From Candidatus Hodarchaeota archaeon (GTDB lineage Archaea > Asgardarchaeota > Lokiarchaeia > Sigyniarchaeales > SOKP01), in the NCBI GenBank assembly GCA_048886685.1, contig JBHLKM010000005.1, positions 42,958 to 106,957 of the forward strand: DNA of 64,000 nt, given 5' to 3'. Shown one piece after another: positions 36,848 through 44,673 of this stretch. The position numbers and the translations under genes were made by a program. Under the pieces are notes generated by a model. The model searched no databases. It was not told the DNA's origin and saw only the letters and a program-made list of their open reading frames with translations. Position 1 is the first letter of the stretch. The number at the start of each line of letters is the position of its first letter.

Positions 36848-37975
36848 TTGGAGTATAATTATATTATTATGGAAAGCTGGAGTATTTCAAATAAATTAAA
36901 GAATGACTTATTAAAGAAATCTAGCAATATTGAGGATAATAGTCGGAGAATATTATTTATTCTTAGAAACTTAGGTCCACAAAGGTTTACGAATTTAATA
37001 AAATATTCAAATTTGAGTAGATCTACAGTTTCTAAATATCTTACCAATCATAGAAAAAATAGAAATGTAGAACAAAGATTAATTACTGATAAACAAACAG
37101 GTAAACAATATCGTGGGTATGTAATCACTGAGAAAGGAATAGAAAAGCTTGGTGAAGAACCTTTAAAAGTAAAAGATGAGTTATTTATAGTTAATGAATT
37201 AAAAGAAAATGTCAGAAAACTGGAAGACCTAATAGATTTTTATAAGGAAATAAATGTAGAAGATGCTTTTATAATCCATATAGTAAGAATAATATCTAAA
37301 ATAGGAGATAATTTTTTTAATTTACAGCAAGATAGAGATCTCTATTTATCACTTTTTTACATTTTCTATAACTCAATTCTTGGTCAAGGTGCATTTGCCA
37401 GAAACTATTGGCATCTTGATGAGTCAAGTACTGAAAAATTTGTAGGTTATAAATTAAATTTAGATCAGTTTTGTGAAGTATATAAAGTATCAAGAGAAGC
37501 TATCAATTACTTAGCTAGATCTAAATTAATAAAGTTTGACTTTGGTTTTTATTTGATTAAACGTAAAAAAAATGATTTCTTCTTTCATGAGGAAGATTTA
37601 GTAGGAACAACAACACTTAGGCTCATAAAAGACAAATTAATTGATGAAATTATCAATCTTCAAGAAGGAATCTATGATATGATTTATGATCTGGATATTA
37701 TGGCTGAGGAAATAACTGATCAATTAAAGGAAATGGGCTTAATATGGGATGCAATTCAAGAGCAATTTCAATTGTTAGTACTAAATTTAGTTATTAAGAA
37801 TGCAATAGAAATGGGCTTTCTTGATATAGAGAGAGAAAAGTTAATGGAAGGGGTTACTCAATCAAAAAAATTACCTATGTCTAAAGAAGGTAAAATCCTT
37901 CAAGAAGCCATTTTAGAGGGTTCAGAAATAGAGTTAAACCTAAATATTCTTACTTTAACGTCAAATCATGAATAA
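36848..37975 (+). CDS. Winged-helix (MarR/ArsR-like) N-terminal domain protein
   Basis: ILFILRNLGPQRFTNLIKYSNLSRSTVSKYL...YVITEKG. Confidence 0.7.
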   Translation: MEYNYIIMESWSISNKLKNDLLKKSSNIEDNSRRILFILRNLGPQRFTNLIKYSNLSRSTVSKYLTNHRKNRNVEQRLITDKQTGKQYRGYVITEKGIEKLGEEPLKVKDELFIVNELKENVRKLEDLIDFYKEINVEDAFIIHIVRIISKIGDNFFNLQQDRDLYLSLFYIFYNSILGQGAFARNYWHLDESSTEKFVGYKLNLDQFCEVYKVSREAINYLARSKLIKFDFGFYLIKRKKNDFFFHEEDLVGTTTLRLIKDKLIDEIINLQEGIYDMIYDLDIMAEEITDQLKEMGLIWDAIQEQFQLLVLNLVIKNAIEMGFLDIEREKLMEGVTQSKKLPMSKEGKILQEAILEGSEIELNLNILTLTSNHE

Positions 37976-38845: not shown

Positions 38846-40369
38846 ATGCTTCAATATCAGATAGTTGGACTGTTAATTAGTTCAATAATAGTTTTTTACA
38901 TCGCAATAAGAGGTCTAAACCATTTAAGTGAATTTAAGATTAACCAATATCTTAAATTAAAACTTGAGGGCGGAAGAACTAATATATATGTAAATAATCG
39001 ACGATTTATACAGTGTATGTACCTGTTATTAAATATTCGAGCGGATATTGTTGAAGAATATGATGAGATTGAATCTATTGATGAAGCAGCTGAAAAATTA
39101 GATCGCTCTATGGAGAGAAATCATCATAAAGTGCCACCAGAAACTGAATTTTGGGGACATTGTTCTAATATACAAGCTTGGGCTGACAATGAATATGATA
39201 CAAGAATTCTTCATCGAAATTTAGCTTTCCCTTTACTAAAAGCACTTGTTGATGCAGGAGATCCTATAGCTAGGCGAAAATTCAAAGAGGAAATTGCCTT
39301 AAGATTCGCAACTGGACACCCTACAGTTATAAGATTTTTAACTCAAAATGGTTATCTACATTACTTAACCGAAGATGAATTTGAAAGTATGCTAATTGAT
39401 ATAGATTTTCCCAGTATTGATGAATATTCAAGAAAAATTTTACCGCTGTTCGATAATTTGAAAGAAACTGAAGCCATTCAACAAATAAAGCAGTATACCA
39501 CAAATTTTGTAAATAGATTCCGTTTTAAATATAAGTATTTAATTTTACTAAAAGCAATAGAAAAGCTCCCAGGCACAATAAGACAAGAATTTATAGAAAT
39601 CATATATAACAAATATAAAAATGTCAGAAGCTTTCCTATATTGAAATTCTTGAATAAAGCTCAAATAAATTACAATGATTTAGATCTCAAAATTATTTCT
39701 TATGATAACAGGTTGGTGGGGATAGTTTTAGATTCAAAAGTTAATTTAAAAAATAAAATGATTGAAAATATAGAAGATATCAAGGGATTAGAAGAATCCT
39801 CAGAAAATATTATGGAACTGGATTTAAGTCATAATAGGATTACTAATTTAAGGGGAATTGAGAAATTAAAAAATTTAAAGAAATTATCCTTGAAAAACAA
39901 CTATATTGAAAAAATTGAATGGTTAGAAGGGCTTGATAATTTGGAATTTTTAGATCTTTCAGGAAATATAAATATTGAAAAGATTCCCGATTCTTTAAAT
40001 AAATTACCCTCACTTAAAATAGTTAAATTAACGGGATGTAGAATCAAACAATTTTCAGAATCAGTATCACACTTCTTCTGGATGGGTCAGAATTTTAGAT
40101 ATTATACAGAATTTACTCAAGAAGATATAAACTTCTATGAGAAAACTCATAAATCAAAAGCAGGTATCAACGGCAGGCTTTACAAAAATTTCGTGAAATG
40201 GTTATTTAAATTAAAGAAAATGATGAGAAAATATAAGTTTATTTATGAGGATCTCAAAAATTTCGAGAAAAAAACTAATTTACAAGCAATCCATTCAGGA
40301 AAACTATTAAAATCTTTCTTAAAGTATCTTGAGAATAAAAAACAAACAAGGATAACAAGATTCTTCTAA
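38846..40369 (+). CDS. Lokiarchaeal leucine-rich repeat protein
   Basis: EFKINQYLKLKLE..TNIYV, EFWGHCSNIQAW...YDTRILHRNLAFPLLK, FKEEIA.RF; LRRs LDLSHNRITNLRGIEKLKNLKKLSLKNNYI. Confidence 0.85.
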   Translation: MLQYQIVGLLISSIIVFYIAIRGLNHLSEFKINQYLKLKLEGGRTNIYVNNRRFIQCMYLLLNIRADIVEEYDEIESIDEAAEKLDRSMERNHHKVPPETEFWGHCSNIQAWADNEYDTRILHRNLAFPLLKALVDAGDPIARRKFKEEIALRFATGHPTVIRFLTQNGYLHYLTEDEFESMLIDIDFPSIDEYSRKILPLFDNLKETEAIQQIKQYTTNFVNRFRFKYKYLILLKAIEKLPGTIRQEFIEIIYNKYKNVRSFPILKFLNKAQINYNDLDLKIISYDNRLVGIVLDSKVNLKNKMIENIEDIKGLEESSENIMELDLSHNRITNLRGIEKLKNLKKLSLKNNYIEKIEWLEGLDNLEFLDLSGNINIEKIPDSLNKLPSLKIVKLTGCRIKQFSESVSHFFWMGQNFRYYTEFTQEDINFYEKTHKSKAGINGRLYKNFVKWLFKLKKMMRKYKFIYEDLKNFEKKTNLQAIHSGKLLKSFLKYLENKKQTRITRFF

Positions 40370-40436: not shown

Positions 40437-41381
40437 TTAGGAATATTCTAACATTTTCTCAATTGGTTTTATCGCCCGTTTTGCTATATTAGGAGGAACT
40501 TTCACTTCAAATTTATTATCGTTTAAGTTTTCCAAGATGTATTTAATGAGTTCGAGATTGTGTTTCTTCATATTATAGCAAACTAGCTTCTCTTTTGCTA
40601 AATAGAATTTTTTTTGAGGGAAATCCTGAGCCATACGTTCTAAGAGCCCAACCTCTGTTCCAATTATAAATTCATTTATGTCAGGCAGACTTTCTTTAGC
40701 ATAATTGTACATCATAGAAGTAGAACCCACAAAATCAGCTAATTCTCTTACTCGTCTTACACATTCTGGATGAACAAGAAGCTTTGCTTTAGGATAATTT
40801 TCTCTTACAATTTTTATATCATCAATTGTAATTTGAGAGTGAACATAACAATGTCCTTTATCTGGCATTTTTATAGTTTTTATATGTGACATTTGTTCTG
40901 TGTAGTCTGCTAAATTTGCATCTGGTCCGAATAAAACTGCTCGTGTATTAAATTCTTCGCTAATTTTTTCTGTTATTTTCACTGCATTTGAAGATGTACA
41001 GCAGATATCAGATTCTGCTTTTACGGCAGCAGTAGAGTTGACATAAACTACCGCGGGTAATCCCGGATGTCTTTCTTTAAACTCTTTAACCATTTTTGGG
41101 TTAAGAAATGCGGCCATCGGACAACATGATTCATAATTCGGAATCATTATATGCTTATCTTGGTTTATAATTGACGCTGTCTCAGCCATGAAATCAACAC
41201 CGGCAAATATAATATAATCTGTATTTGCTTTTTCTTTAGCTGTTCGAGATAATCCGAGAGAGTCTCCTAAATAATCAGCAATTTCTTGAATTTCAATTGG
41301 TTGATAATAATGAGCTAAAATTATTACATTATTTTGCTTTTTTAGTGTTAAAATTTCTTCTTGAAGTTGTTTGATAGTCAT
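40437..41381 (-). CDS. nadA: Quinolinate synthase
   Basis: ILAHYYQ, GDSL.L, GV.FMAETA, CPMA, YVNS, CCTSSNA, C.VH, HPEC, GTE.G, C.NMK. Confidence 0.96.
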   Translation of the reverse strand: MTIKQLQEEILTLKKQNNVIILAHYYQPIEIQEIADYLGDSLGLSRTAKEKANTDYIIFAGVDFMAETASIINQDKHIMIPNYESCCPMAAFLNPKMVKEFKERHPGLPAVVYVNSTAAVKAESDICCTSSNAVKITEKISEEFNTRAVLFGPDANLADYTEQMSHIKTIKMPDKGHCYVHSQITIDDIKIVRENYPKAKLLVHPECVRRVRELADFVGSTSMMYNYAKESLPDINEFIIGTEVGLLERMAQDFPQKKFYLAKEKLVCYNMKKHNLELIKYILENLNDNKFEVKVPPNIAKRAIKPIEKMLEYS

Positions 41382-41565
41382 TTTTTCAAAAAGGAATCAA
41401 TATTTATTATAATACTTAAGGATTTAAGAAAAGATAAGTTGTTTGATTATAAAAAATTTGAATTATGTAATTTTAGAGACTTTAATTAGGAAGTTTGTTA
41501 ATTCGTAAAATTATTATTTCTGGGAAATATAATTGAAATTAACATTATAATGGGGTAGTTTCATT

Positions 41566-43239
41566 ATGGATTTTATTTATAAGGAAGAATATTGGTATAT
41601 AAGTTCATTTATAAACACTAATCTTGTAGATGGTAATGTGAAAAGTGAAGAAATTAGGATAAAAATTAAAGAATGTCTAAATAATCTAAAAAAAGAAGAT
41701 CTTTATTATAAAATACGAGATGAAATTGGCGATGATATAATAGACATGGCGAAAAATATTTCATTGTCTTGTAAATGGGAACCTTATCTGGAGAGTTTTC
41801 CCTATGAGGATGAAAACAGCCAAAAAGAATATGATACCTTAGGATTTTTTCAGTTTGATGTAGAATATTATAAAGAAAATCCCTCAAAAAAACAAAATAT
41901 TAGATCGAACTATATTCAACAGATCCCACAAATAATAAATACTTTTTTAATGGATTATTCTGCAAAGGAGGAAGCCAAAGGGATTCTTTTTGATTTAGAG
42001 AGCCCTATGTATATTTTTATTACTTCAGATAAAGTAGAGCCTCAAGAAATCTCTTGGACACAAGAAAATATTGAAAAGTACAAAAAAATTATTGGTTATT
42101 GGACAGAGGTATATTCAGGGCAATGGGAAGATTATTCAGAGGTCCTATACGATAAACGTATTGAAAATAATTTATCTAATCGTTTGTCAGAACTACATTT
42201 TATTCGTAGAAATTCTGGATTCATATATATGGCAGAAGATAATTATACGAATTTCTTTAACTCTTATATGAAAGAATATGTTTTAACTCCTACTCCAAAA
42301 ATGAGAGCAGTTCTATTTGCACTACGATCTATAAATGAGTCATTAGATTTACTATTCTTGAAGACTGAATCAGAAGAATTCAAGGATGTTGAAACTATTG
42401 AAAGAAAAATTCGAAATCTTAGATTTTTAAGGGGTTTAATTCAAACTAAATTAAGCTTGGTATATAATGAATTGGATTATAATAGAAGACAACATTTTAC
42501 GAATGTATTAAAACATTTACTTAATGAGTTTGAAATTGATAGAATAGTTTCCCGAATCAATGAAAAATTTGATATTATTTATGATTCAATGCAAGGATTA
42601 TATGTCAAAAAAAATGAAGAAATTCAAAAAAGAACTGAAAAAGGTCTTAATCTCCTAAATCTACTTTTTGGAGCGGGAATTTTAGCAGACCTTGGAAGTG
42701 TTATTATGATTGCATTAAGTTTACAAGAAGGGGATCTTAGTTCAATAGTGTTAAATAGTATAATTGCAATAATAATTAGTGGAATTTTAATTACTACAAT
42801 TATATTCAACGTTTATATGAGAGTTCAAGTTAATAAGGCAGAAATTTTACATGCTGTGGATGCCGTTATTGAAGATGGAAAAGGAAATGTGGTTTTAATC
42901 AAGCGGAAATATCCTCCTTATCAAGGTTTTTATGCATTACCAGGCGGTTCTGTTGAAAAGGGTGAAAAACTAAAAGAAGCATTGGTAAGAGAAGTTAGAG
43001 AAGAAACTAATTTAAATGTGGATGTAACAGAGAAAATTGGAATTTACGATAAGGAGGGAAGGGATCCTCGAGGTAATGTTCATAGTACTGCTTATAAGTG
43101 TATTGTTCTTGGAAATATTTCTGAGATGCAAAATGGTGAAGAAACGGTAGAAGTAAAACTTTTTTCAAAAGAACAGGTAAAAGATATGGAATTAGCGTTT
43201 GATCATAAGGAAATGCTAAGAGACGCTAAATTCATATGA
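41566..43239 (+). CDS. CorA/DUF155-like helical + 2TM protein fused to a C-terminal NUDIX (ADP-ribose pyrophosphatase-like) domain
   Basis: Long helix FEIDRIVSRINEKFDIIYD running into two TMs; NUDIX box GGSVEKGEKLKEALVREVREET, GRDPRG, LAFDH. Confidence 0.75.
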   Translation: MDFIYKEEYWYISSFINTNLVDGNVKSEEIRIKIKECLNNLKKEDLYYKIRDEIGDDIIDMAKNISLSCKWEPYLESFPYEDENSQKEYDTLGFFQFDVEYYKENPSKKQNIRSNYIQQIPQIINTFLMDYSAKEEAKGILFDLESPMYIFITSDKVEPQEISWTQENIEKYKKIIGYWTEVYSGQWEDYSEVLYDKRIENNLSNRLSELHFIRRNSGFIYMAEDNYTNFFNSYMKEYVLTPTPKMRAVLFALRSINESLDLLFLKTESEEFKDVETIERKIRNLRFLRGLIQTKLSLVYNELDYNRRQHFTNVLKHLLNEFEIDRIVSRINEKFDIIYDSMQGLYVKKNEEIQKRTEKGLNLLNLLFGAGILADLGSVIMIALSLQEGDLSSIVLNSIIAIIISGILITTIIFNVYMRVQVNKAEILHAVDAVIEDGKGNVVLIKRKYPPYQGFYALPGGSVEKGEKLKEALVREVREETNLNVDVTEKIGIYDKEGRDPRGNVHSTAYKCIVLGNISEMQNGEETVEVKLFSKEQVKDMELAFDHKEMLRDAKFI

Positions 43240-43333: not shown

Positions 43334-43898
43334 ATGATAATTATACCAAGTCCGGAAACCGGAAAAGAACCTCAAATTCACGATTCTGCTTACATTGCTC
43401 CCACAGCTGTCATCATCGGAGACGTAATAATCGGAGAAAATTCAAATGTTTGGTTTGGTGCAACTATTCGAGGAGATTGGGGCTCAATTAAAATTGGAAA
43501 AAATACTAGCATTCAAGAAAATGTTACCATTCATATTGAAGCAGGAAGTTCTGTAACTATAGGGGATGATTGTATTATAGGTCATCATGCAAAGATGTGA
43601 AGGTCTTACTTTACTCTGCAGAATGATTCATGGACCTTGTACAATAGAAAATGGCTGTGTTGTCGGAATTGCATCAAATGTATTACACCAGTCAAAACTT
43701 TGTGAAGGTTCTGTCCTTGCGGCAGGAGCAGTGCTCTTAGGCAAAGAGATCCCTCCTAGAAGCCTGGCTGTTGGAATTCCCGCCTCGGTTAAAAAAGAAG
43801 GAATTTATAAGGGGAAACTTGAAGGAACTAAAATATCCAAACTCTATACAAAAAAAGGTCAGACTTTTAAACAGTATTTTAACCAAAATTCATCATAG
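43334..43898 (+). CDS. Gamma-carbonic-anhydrase family (YrdA/Cam-like LbH) protein interrupted by a 31-nt insert; join(43334..43592,43624..43898) gives 177 aa
   Basis: AYIAPTAVIIGDV.IG..S.VWFGA.IRGD, IQEN.TIH, IGHHA|MIHG.C.I, LAVGIPA; the two tracked ORFs (43334..43600 and 43587..43898) are the two halves. Confidence 0.85.
43593..43623 (+). other. Candidate archaeal BHB-type mRNA intron (31 nt) AGATGTGAAGGTCTTACTTTACTCTGCAGAA
   Basis: Contains an in-frame TGA and shifts frame; removal restores GHHAMIHG; flanked by a relaxed BHB (outer ATC/GAT, helix aTGC/GCAg, bulges AA|A and AA|T) with an internal hairpin. Confidence 0.65.
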
Positions 43899-43932: not shown

Positions 43933-44673
43933 CTATTTTGAGCAAAAACAACTTTCATTCTTAACTATATCTATAATATTAAACCTTAAATCTATTAAAT
44001 TCACCATTAAAACTTTATTTTCAAGATTAGGGAGACCTAAGGCTGTTTTTATTACTTCTAAAGCTTCTAATGTGCCTAAAATACCAGGAGTTACGCCAAT
44101 TACCGGTAATGGTCCTTCTTCTGGAGGAACTTCTGGAGGTTCTGAAAATACACATTGATAACAAGCAGTCTTTCTTGGATTAATTGTGATAATTTGTCCA
44201 TAAAAATCTTTGATCCCTGCAATAACACATCTTAAATTATTTTCAATAGCTATCTTGTTAACTAGGAATTTTGTTTTAAAATTGTCACTACAGTCAACCA
44301 CAAAATCATAATCTTTTTCTTTTAGATATTTCTTAATCGATTCTTCATCAATATAATCTTTATAAACGTTAATTTGAACATCTGAATTAAGTTTTGATAA
44401 TACATCTTTGGCAGAATTTACCTTATCTTTACCAATTTGAGATTCATTATAGAGAATTTGCCTTTGTAGATTTGAAATATCCAAAATATCATTATCTATT
44501 ATTGTTAATTGATTAATCCCTGCAGCTGTTAAATACAGTGAAAAAGGCGATCCTAAGCCTCCGCAACCTATCTGAAGGATTTTCAGCTCAGAAATCTTTT
44601 CTTGACCTTTTTCCCCTATTACGGGAGATATAATTTGACGCGAATATCTCTCCTTTTGCCTTTCAGTTAGAAT
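43933..44673 (-). CDS. ThiF/MoeB/HesA-family E1-like enzyme (UbaA-like); probable ATT start at 44673
   Basis: Upstream of the tracked TTG (44484) the frame encodes LTERQKERYSRQI...GQEKI...IGCGGLGS...LTAAG; then SNLQRQ, DCSDNF, CYQC, GVTPGILG, CFC. Confidence 0.9.
   Translation of the reverse strand: MLTERQKERYSRQIISPVIGEKGQEKISELKILQIGCGGLGSPFSLYLTAAGINQLTIIDNDILDISNLQRQILYNESQIGKDKVNSAKDVLSKLNSDVQINVYKDYIDEESIKKYLKEKDYDFVVDCSDNFKTKFLVNKIAIENNLRCVIAGIKDFYGQIITINPRKTACYQCVFSEPPEVPPEEGPLPVIGVTPGILGTLEALEVIKTALGLPNLENKVLMVNLIDLRFNIIDIVKNESCFCSK

Follow-up and report, generated by a model that had tools for sequence, protein, structure and literature searches.

A CorA-shaped two-transmembrane protein with a C-terminal ADP-ribose-type Nudix domain in Asgard archaea: a possible nucleotide-responsive membrane effector

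We analyzed a stretch of 64,000 nucleotides from Candidatus Hodarchaeota archaeon (GenBank assembly GCA_048886685.1, contig JBHLKM010000005.1, positions 42,958 to 106,957 of the forward strand), hereafter the window, and focused on one open reading frame (ORF) whose translation yields a protein of 557 aa. This protein joins a CorA-shaped membrane module with two transmembrane segments (TM1 and TM2) to a Nudix domain of the ADP-ribose (ADPR) type, and is probably an undescribed membrane device responsive to nicotinamide adenine dinucleotide (NAD) or ADPR. As a working model, which we hold tentatively and at somewhat less than an even chance, it would be a membrane effector that responds to a nucleotide and resets itself by means of a built-in hydrolase; analogues would be the CorA effectors and NrN enzymes of CRISPR systems as well as Thoeris. 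The coordinates of all features within the window are given in Table 1.

The gene is real and under purifying selection. Long open frames seldom arise by chance in DNA of low G+C content, and the G+C content of the surrounding DNA is 26–32%. More than 500 homologues of the same architecture, together with a ratio of nonsynonymous to synonymous substitution rates (dN/dS) of 0.11 relative to the nearest orthologue (locus L034, dS 0.67), mark a real and constrained gene. Divided by part, dN/dS against L034 was 0.10 for the N-terminal domain, 0.06 for the helical bundle, 0.12 for the TM hairpin, and 0.17 for the Nudix domain. Hydropathy revealed exactly two hydrophobic segments (residues ~362–386 and ~392–420, nucleotides ~42649–42825). 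Lys and Arg residues precede TM1 and follow TM2, and the 5-residue loop connecting both segments is acidic (the sequence between TM1 and TM2 reads SLQEGD), which predicts a cytoplasmic location for both soluble parts. This agrees with the initial annotation, made from the DNA sequence alone, which had placed both soluble parts on one side of the membrane. It had also described the lack of a GMN motif, an intact Nudix box, and RDPR and LAFDH motifs, all of which were found as described.

The only Pfam domain in the protein is Nudix (PF00293; residues 430–553, E = 9.8e-21, 74.6 bits at a cut-off of 21.1). Compared with the consensus GX5EX7REUXEEXGU, its Nudix box keeps all catalytic residues, the sole change being the replacement of the penultimate G by N. 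Partial NCBIfam matches comprised NadM-Nudix (2e-11), NrtR (1.4e-10), and MutT models (9e-6), and the closest solved structures were 2yyh, 3i9x, 2fml (the NrtR-family protein EF2700), NrtR from Shewanella (3gz5 and 3gz8), and NadM-Nudix (2qjo and 2qjt). The GRDPRG and (L/V)xFDH motifs align with these structures, and GRDPRG is kept in most Nudix-bearing members of the protein family. These matches, structural relatives, and aligned motifs support the earlier proposal that RDPR and LAFDH place the domain in the ADPR pyrophosphatase/NadM/NrtR group. Judged by closest similarity and by the motifs outside the box, it belongs to the ADPR pyrophosphatase/NadM-Nudix/NrtR subgroup (COG1051), and it is apparently active as an ADPR-type enzyme.

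The Nudix domain of NrtR resembles the ADPR pyrophosphatase domain of NadM, and within the NrtR group an intact signature goes along with ADPR pyrophosphatase activity and a degenerate signature with ADPR sensing (Rodionov et al., PMC2330246). In the family described here, REUxEE is kept in the window protein, in clade A, to which this protein belongs, and in the sister clade B, and the box is degenerate in subfamilies P0123 (RLFVKK), P0130, P0137, and P0136. P0123 retains both RDPR and LAFDH, and P0130, P0136, and P0137 retain only the C-terminal motif of the (L/S)xF(N/H)H type. Intact boxes in some subfamilies and degenerate boxes in others thus indicate that ‘enzyme’ and ‘sensor’ versions both exist; by analogy to NrtR, the degenerate boxes are what a sensor role would predict.

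The Nudix domain might instead act on a non-ADPR substrate (oxidized nucleotides, dinucleoside polyphosphates, or a lipid-linked sugar nucleotide), with the N-terminal site belonging to an unrelated enzyme or sensor and with no involvement in NAD signaling. Sequence is an unreliable guide to Nudix specificity, homologues carry the JGI label ‘8-oxo-dGTP diphosphatase’, and the N-terminal domain lacks a known fold match, all of which would suit this explanation. We nevertheless consider it very unlikely, as the nearest characterized relatives are ADPR-specific, MutT models reach only E-values of about 1e-5 versus 1e-10 to 1e-11 for NadM and NrtR, GRDPRG and LAFDH are common to the NrtR/NadM-like structures, and TIR genes are linked to clade B (see below).

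The membrane module had been proposed to be CorA/DUF155-like, with a structural check of the N-terminal part suggested. An AlphaFold2 model of residues 1–425, computed as a single chain on a 65-sequence alignment, reached a mean predicted local distance difference test (pLDDT) score of 91.3 and a predicted template modeling (pTM) score of 0.83. It consists of an alpha/beta domain (1–222), several helices (224–321), a 60-residue helix that runs from the cytoplasm into TM1 (324–383), and TM2 (391–424); the long stalk-like helix that had been postulated ahead of the TMs is therefore seen as one continuous element. In a second look at the structure, the whole chain retrieved only CorA, ZntB, Mrs2, and CmaX at ranks 1–29. 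For the isolated N-terminal alpha/beta domain, the structure search found no clear solved-fold match, the N-domain of CorA included. Neither PF01544 (CorA) nor PF02582 (DUF155/RMND1-Sif2) matched the protein at E ≤ 1 or any of 37 family representatives at E ≤ 0.1, and comparison by hhalign of the family alignment with aligned, bona fide CorA proteins of Asgard archaea returned a probability of 1.5%. GMN is absent from the whole 557-aa translation, and the outer end of TM1 shows no GxN signature. On another contig, the same genome encodes a canonical CorA that does carry YGMNF, and 11 relatives likewise have YGMNF or YGMNL. CorA or DUF155 membership by sequence was therefore rejected on the missing Pfam matches and the hhalign result. 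As a modeled whole chain the protein is CorA-shaped, yet it is no demonstrable member of the CorA family, and the likeness extends neither to the isolated N-terminal domain nor to sequence profiles; of the earlier proposal, only the overall architecture stood.

The fold resemblance raises the possibility of a true CorA/ZntB-type divalent-cation channel that is gated by ADPR via its Nudix domain and serves ordinary ion homeostasis, i.e., a prokaryotic counterpart of TRPM2, the eukaryotic ADPR-gated, six-TM, tetrameric TRP cation channel with a NUDT9-homology Nudix domain. The whole-chain fold like that of CorA, ZntB, and Mrs2 would fit such a channel, as would a conserved acidic residue in TM1 and the position of the Nudix domain at the cytoplasmic mouth, ~10 residues past TM2. 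With GMN and GxN lacking, no CorA match in any of the 37 representatives, the low hhalign probability, a canonical CorA already present in the genome, and a patchy distribution within the genus that would be unusual for a homeostatic channel, we regard this explanation as highly improbable.

To describe the family, we used the N-terminal 425 residues, which matched more than 500 proteins at E ≤ 1e-3; nearly all among the matches listed show the ~557-aa architecture with a Nudix domain. Named homologues stem from Promethearchaeota/Lokiarchaeota, Hermod-, Hod-, or Thorarchaeota, and are labeled ‘NUDIX domain-containing protein’ or ‘8-oxo-dGTP diphosphatase’ (JGI). In our searches, the family was confined to Asgard archaea except for one eukaryote-like transcript and occurred in 126 of the 398 genomes of the phylum. 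The fusion is thus conserved across Asgard genomes, as had been asked at the outset, and not unique to this assembly. Within the genus (52 genomes), about 20 genomes carry clade A, 7 carry only clade B, and 25 carry neither; genomes without the family include several of 97–100% completeness. The genome under study holds a single family copy and two unlinked stand-alone Nudix genes.

When cluster representatives were searched exhaustively with HMMER, 92 clusters were obtained. Among 37 near-full-length representatives, 15 match Nudix, and about 20 (397–444 aa) stop no more than a few residues after TM2. In a maximum-likelihood phylogeny built from 69 sequences, these short forms without Nudix are basal, and the Nudix-bearing forms are united in one clade (support 99). 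P0139, a short form nested among Nudix-bearing forms, indicates secondary loss of the Nudix domain. Since the basal short forms (394–444 aa) end after the hairpin, the membrane module predates the fusion and has a function independent of Nudix. Fusions of the module to other domains were not found among proteins of 976–2785 aa, which is weak evidence. A motif cluster in the N-terminal domain is conserved in short and long forms alike (W164, W179, Y183-S-G-x-x-x-D189-Y190, R198, L203-S-x-R206-x-S208-E209-x-H211, N216-S217, and Y234). W164 and E209 are invariant, and the other residues of the cluster occur in at least 90% of rows (alignments A1–A3, short forms included), which makes the cluster a candidate ligand-binding or catalytic site. 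Conserved columns in TM1 comprise N365 (53/59 rows), G369 (49/58), and D/E375 (42/58).

The eukaryote-like homologue is represented by P0136/P0214 (an MMETSP transcript and a JGI contig; 849 and 956 aa), which has the CorA-shaped two-TM Nudix layout, a degenerate box (RSIMED), an N-terminal extension, and a long low-complexity tail rich in Ser, Gly, and Pro. P0136 nests in the Asgard Nudix-bearing clade beside P0131 (support 99), and its nearest relatives are of the Helarchaeota type (36% identity). It reflects either a transfer into a protist or an unusual contaminant. The search for further eukaryotic homologues returned only this single MMETSP cluster.

The family structure bears on a further explanation, by which the protein would be a membrane-tethered housekeeping ADPR pyrophosphatase for NAD recycling, in which Nudix would be the sole working part and the CorA-shaped part would only anchor and oligomerize the enzyme, without a pore. 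An intact Nudix box of the ADPR type is what such an enzyme would need. It would not, however, account for basal family members that carry the membrane module without Nudix, for the near-invariant motif cluster and the conserved polar residues of TM1, or for subfamilies that have lost catalytic Nudix residues and kept the whole architecture. The bundle and the TM hairpin are, moreover, strongly constrained (dN/dS 0.03–0.12), the N-terminal part is conserved at least as well as the Nudix domain, and other stand-alone Nudix genes are available in the genome.

The link to NAD-derived signals came from clade B. We searched all ORFs of 40 loci and the whole genome under study with a profile iterated from two TIR_2 seeds located beside clade B genes. 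This yielded 21 TIR ORFs, all within the 40 loci and none in the genome under study. All family genes adjacent to TIR genes belong to clade B (support 100; 574–581 aa; 47–50% identity to the window protein). Of 20 loci with a clade B gene, 14 have a TIR gene within 1.5 kb; among the six loci without TIR, two are cut by contig ends. For clade A, a TIR neighbor was found at 0 of 10 loci, save through an adjacent clade B gene in L045. The TIR partners include a ~1225-aa protein with ~19 WD40 repeats ending in TIR, encoded directly upstream on the same strand (L045, L059, L063, L067, L068, and L070), and convergently encoded TIR proteins of 544–1071 aa (L052, L055, L056, L058, L062, and L069). All 21 TIR domains retain an FxS(H/Y)A strand and a Glu at a position that we take to be the catalytic position of NADase-type TIRs. 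An independent Pfam search confirmed TIR_2 in five clade B genomes with 3–12 TIR_2 genes each, 11 of 31 being located within ~8 kb of a clade B gene; as these genomes were picked after the adjacency had been seen, the counts measure background density only.

Clade B genes may be flanked by several giant TIR proteins, namely the ~1225-aa protein with 19 WD40 repeats, a 1424-aa beta-helix/NosD-TIR protein, and TIR proteins of 544–1071 aa. In G188, the flanking giant TIR genes are found at L041:2498-6172 and L041:8957-13231, and in G262 (L062, G262:C114), a stretch of 13 kb holds as many as four TIR genes. The multiple TIR genes around clade B suggest a TIR-rich island rather than a simple two-gene operon.

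The genome under study (100% completeness) gave no TIR_2, ThsB_TIR, or TIR Pfam match, and contains one unlinked SIR2_2 protein. The window copy, itself under purifying selection, is therefore a TIR-less orphan; the missing TIR partner would also suit a housekeeping enzyme. The link to an NAD-derived nucleotide rests on the TIR genes beside the sister paralogue, and we infer it for the window copy by paralogy. One short form without Nudix (444 aa; L047:7407-11576, G143) is followed 16 bp downstream by a 940-aa SIR2_2 protein (Pfam 2.3e-14; PADLOC ThsA-like 3.6e-10). This neighbor is missing beside the closest relatives of the gene (L046 and L048), and we treat it as an anecdote.

The initial annotation had seen a functional NAD link in the adjacent nadA gene and in nearby sirtuins. 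In the window, the neighbors of the gene are a leucine-rich repeat (LRR) protein, nadA, a gamma-carbonic anhydrase (gamma-CA), an E1-like protein, a roadblock protein, and LSm. nadA is divergently adjacent in the closest relatives (L034–L037, L045, and L053) as it is in the window, and in these loci every neighbor is syntenic, i.e., an unnamed ORF (window 36848–37975), LRR, nadA, the target gene, gamma-CA, E1-like, roadblock, LSm, and an Hgd-like gene. The adjacency is missing in L038, L040, L042–L044, and L052, and farther members of clade A and other clades have unrelated neighbors, e.g., HypF, an ABC-2 transporter, GrpE/Hsp70, P-type ATPases, or an amino-acid permease. Linkage to nadA or to sirtuins was therefore rejected as functional evidence, being confined to a fully syntenic block of close relatives and lost elsewhere.

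In same-genus genomes without the target gene, the interval beside nadA, in most of them up to gamma-CA, holds other cargo. G179 and G183 carry a stand-alone Nudix gene, an MFS transporter, and an aminotransferase. The stand-alone Nudix proteins (L087:3721-4143 in G179 and L088:4758-5213 in G183; 141–152 aa) are encoded beside gamma-CA, show 58–61% identity to the window Nudix domain, and fall within the Nudix branch of clade A (local support 93); they look like a fission product or remnant of a clade A gene minus its membrane module. In G185, G182, and G204, the slot holds two genes, the first for an 819-aa WD40-repeat protein that ends in a two-TM hairpin, the second for a single-TM protein of 289 aa resembling isochorismatases (nicotinamidase family) (L086:9029-12341 in G185, L089:4588-7900 in G204, and L090:9071-12380 in G182; the genes overlap). 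This pair may be another NAD-linked membrane module. The 819-aa protein and a 216-aa two-TM protein, also found as alternative cargo, were rejected as family members, as they are not homologous. In G188, the nadA-side slot contains WD40-TIR, clade B, and beta-helix-TIR genes, and in G247 WD40-TIR, clade B, and clade A genes. The cargo thus differs across genomes: the interval between nadA and gamma-CA is a variable slot within an otherwise conserved backbone, and adjacency to nadA does not reflect a conserved functional pairing. A housekeeping pyrophosphatase could draw on nadA adjoining the gene in close relatives and on the Nudix-only gene of the clade A branch at the same locus in G179 and G183, but the nadA adjacency is gone outside the syntenic block. 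Together with the constraints on the membrane module, this leaves the housekeeping explanation rather improbable, though less so than the two alternatives discussed above.

We favor the effector model because an independent and conserved membrane module, degenerate Nudix boxes in some lineages, and the link between clade B and TIR are less well explained by the rivals. In this model, the conserved cytoplasmic site or the Nudix domain would sense an NAD-derived, ADPR-containing nucleotide. Sensing would alter the state of an oligomeric membrane pore or perturb the membrane otherwise, and the tethered Nudix domain would then cleave the pyrophosphate of the nucleotide, thereby switching the device off or limiting desensitization; oligomerization, pore activity, ligand identity, and hydrolysis are the parts of the model that we infer. 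In lineages with degenerate boxes, the Nudix domain would only bind the ADPR-containing ligand. The clade B module would be the probable effector of the adjacent TIR-domain sensors in a Thoeris-like manner. Since the genome under study lacks TIR, the ligand source of the window copy cannot be TIR; this clade A copy would answer ADPR-type nucleotides of other origin, e.g., from sirtuins, NADases of the SIR2 type, or NAD breakdown driven by viruses or stress. Obvious candidates for its ligand are free ADPR and the O-acetyl-ADPR that sirtuins or other NAD-consuming enzymes release.

Several points weigh against this model. With 0 of 10 clade A loci having a TIR neighbor and none of the three TIR Pfam families in the genome under study, the TIR argument holds by paralogy only. 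Nudix enzymes of the ADPR type usually form dimers, a state not easily reconciled with a pentamer like that of CorA. G179 and G183 keep a Nudix-only gene at the target locus, so the Nudix domain can persist without the membrane part. A more far-reaching version, which we regard as doubtful, would define an Asgard-specific class of ADPR-type nucleotide-gated pores, each combining a CorA-shaped two-TM channel with a Nudix timer. Clade B would then supply the effector of a new TIR-based immune pathway in archaea, and clade A would sense, independently of TIR, the free ADPR or O-acetyl-ADPR that arises in NAD turnover; the single eukaryote-like homologue would hint at a transfer of the gene to eukaryotes. 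If true, this class would be the prokaryotic functional counterpart of TRPM2.

Should the effector model hold, no earlier membrane effector of CorA architecture would be known to respond to ADPR-type nucleotides, and no earlier effector to carry a signal-degrading Nudix domain fused to itself. TIR/NAD-derived signaling, known in bacteria, plants, and animals, would then reach into Asgard archaea, which are the closest prokaryotic relatives of eukaryotes. The protein would also offer a compact single-polypeptide system for studying the reset of ligand-gated pores, and clades A and B provide a natural comparison between an orphan copy and a TIR-coupled copy. The current labels ‘NUDIX domain-containing protein’ and ‘8-oxo-dGTP diphosphatase’ mask the larger and more conserved membrane module.

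Table 1. Features of the target gene and its upstream neighborhood, in window coordinates.
Feature	Position	Strand	Basis
Whole gene: 557-aa CorA-shaped two-TM protein with C-terminal Nudix, family clade A	41566..43239	+	ORF list, translation, homologues, dN/dS
N-terminal alpha/beta domain, predicted cytoplasmic, residues 1–222; without Pfam family; alone without clear solved-fold match	41566..42231	+	
Near-invariant motif cluster: W164, W179, YSGQWxDY 183–190, R198, LSNRLSELH 203–211, NS 216–217, Y234	42055..42267	+	alignments
Helical bundle and stalk helix, residues 224–361; most constrained part of the protein	42235..42648	+	
TM1, residues 362–386; conserved L364-N365-xxx-G369, D/E375; without GMN	42649..42723	+	hydropathy, column conservation
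TM2, residues 392–420, then basic linker of ~8–10 residues to Nudix	42739..42825	+	hydropathy; AlphaFold2 helix 391–424
Nudix domain, predicted cytoplasmic, residues 428–557; ADPR-pyrophosphatase/NadM/NrtR type	42847..43236	+	Pfam, NCBIfam, PDB relatives
Nudix box G461-x5-E467-x7-R475-E476-V-R-E479-E480-T-N-L; catalytic REUxEE intact	42946..43014	+	sequence, regex match
GRDPRG motif, residues 498–503, common to closest solved ADPR-type Nudix relatives	43057..43074	+	alignments to 2yyh, 3i9x, 2fml
LAFDH motif, residues 543–547	43192..43206	+	sequence, alignment
184-bp divergent intergenic region between target gene and nadA; presumed promoter region	41382..41565	.	ORF coordinates
nadA	40437-41381	-	Pfam E 1e-106

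Regarding other genes of the locus, the far side of nadA (window 38846–40369, +) encodes a 507-aa protein with an N-terminal TM anchor, a ~280-aa middle domain, and C-terminal leucine-rich repeats. Its identity to the protein encoded at the corresponding position is 45% in the closest genomes, where other neighbors reach 78–95%, and 74–78% in others, and it is absent in G185 and G179; uneven identity and absences thus mark a second variable element flanking nadA. The gamma-carbonic-anhydrase/hexapeptide gene (window 43334–43898, +) is split into two overlapping frames (43334–43600 and 43587–43898). The split also occurs in the two closest relatives (L034 and L035), and the halves are contiguous in one frame in relatives farther away (L037, L039, L041, L042, and L053). 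Being common to L034 and L035, the split is inherited rather than a read error, which fits the idea of a micro-intron or recoding. The ThiF/E1-like ORF (window 43933–44484, -), called from canonical starts, begins at position 56 of 238 of the Pfam profile, so its true start must lie upstream of the first ATG, GTG, or TTG.

Among known systems, CorA, ZntB, Mrs2, and CmaX (PF01544) share with the modeled protein the chain order of alpha/beta domain, helical bundle, stalk helix continuous with TM1, short loop, and TM2, and are its top structural matches. They differ in that the target has neither GMN or GxN nor HMM or profile–profile similarity, in that its N-terminal domain is not recognizably that of CorA, and in that the short basic C-terminus of CorA is replaced by the Nudix domain. 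TRPM2 is likewise a channel-like membrane protein with a C-terminal cytoplasmic ADPR-type Nudix domain, which is catalytically dead in some lineages and serves as a sensor. With six TMs and a tetrameric state in TRPM2 as opposed to two TMs and a CorA-like architecture here, the relation is one of analogy only.

NadM-Nudix and NrtR (2qjo, 2qjt, 2fml, and 3gz5; PMC2330246) are nearest by sequence, have GRDPRG and (L/V)xFDH in common with the target, and display the same split into intact, active-type and degenerate, sensor-type boxes. Those proteins are soluble, and their Nudix domain is joined to an adenylyltransferase or to a DNA-binding winged helix, whereas in the target it is joined to a membrane module.

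In Thoeris, TIR sensors are combined with effectors that bind TIR-made ADPR derivatives, membrane-spanning effectors included; type II pairs TIR with a Macro-2TM ThsA and uses a His-ADPR signal, and the newer types VI and VII have TM effectors (bioRxiv 10.1101/2024.01.03.573942; 10.64898/2025.12.03.692087). The likeness concerns clade B only, where a TIR gene adjoins the gene of a membrane-spanning protein with an ADPR-family binding domain, and where an NAD-derived signal made by TIR would be expected to act on the membrane effector. In contrast to the Macro, SLOG, or SLATT domains of Thoeris, the effector here would be CorA-shaped with an intact Nudix domain. The TIR partners of clade B are giant proteins that combine TIR with WD40, beta-helix, or other repeats, and the system is found in an Asgard archaeon; the window copy has no TIR partner. 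A systematic survey of Thoeris and TIR systems mentions neither Nudix nor CorA effectors, and our literature search found no paper combining CorA, Nudix, and Asgard, or TIR, Nudix, and CorA.

The closest parallel in design is the type III CRISPR CorA effector (Bacteroides fragilis Cmr; Chi et al. 2023, PMC10600005). Effectors of this kind bind SAM-AMP, the product of Cas10, and always occur with, and are sometimes fused to, a degrading enzyme (NrN, DEDD, or SAM-AMP lyase), which was proposed to act as an off-switch or as a guard against desensitization (PMC10600005). As proposed for the target, a divergent CorA-shaped membrane effector has a large cytoplasmic part, where the ligand binds in the CRISPR effector, and a signal-degrading enzyme is obligately associated, in some species by fusion. 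That effector resembles canonical CorA only in its C-terminal region, i.e., in the helical and TM parts. It differs from the target in using SAM-AMP and a DHH/DEDD nuclease or a lyase instead of an ADPR-type Nudix domain, and a TIR partner exists in clade B only. No cas-type neighbors were seen in the ~45 family loci inspected or at the window locus, and the sole match of the protein in a PADLOC scan was the Nudix candidate model PDC-S07. The earlier analogy with nucleotide-gated type III CRISPR CorA effectors fits in architecture. The target would represent a signal-gated membrane effector paired with a signal-degrading enzyme, in a probably undescribed combination.

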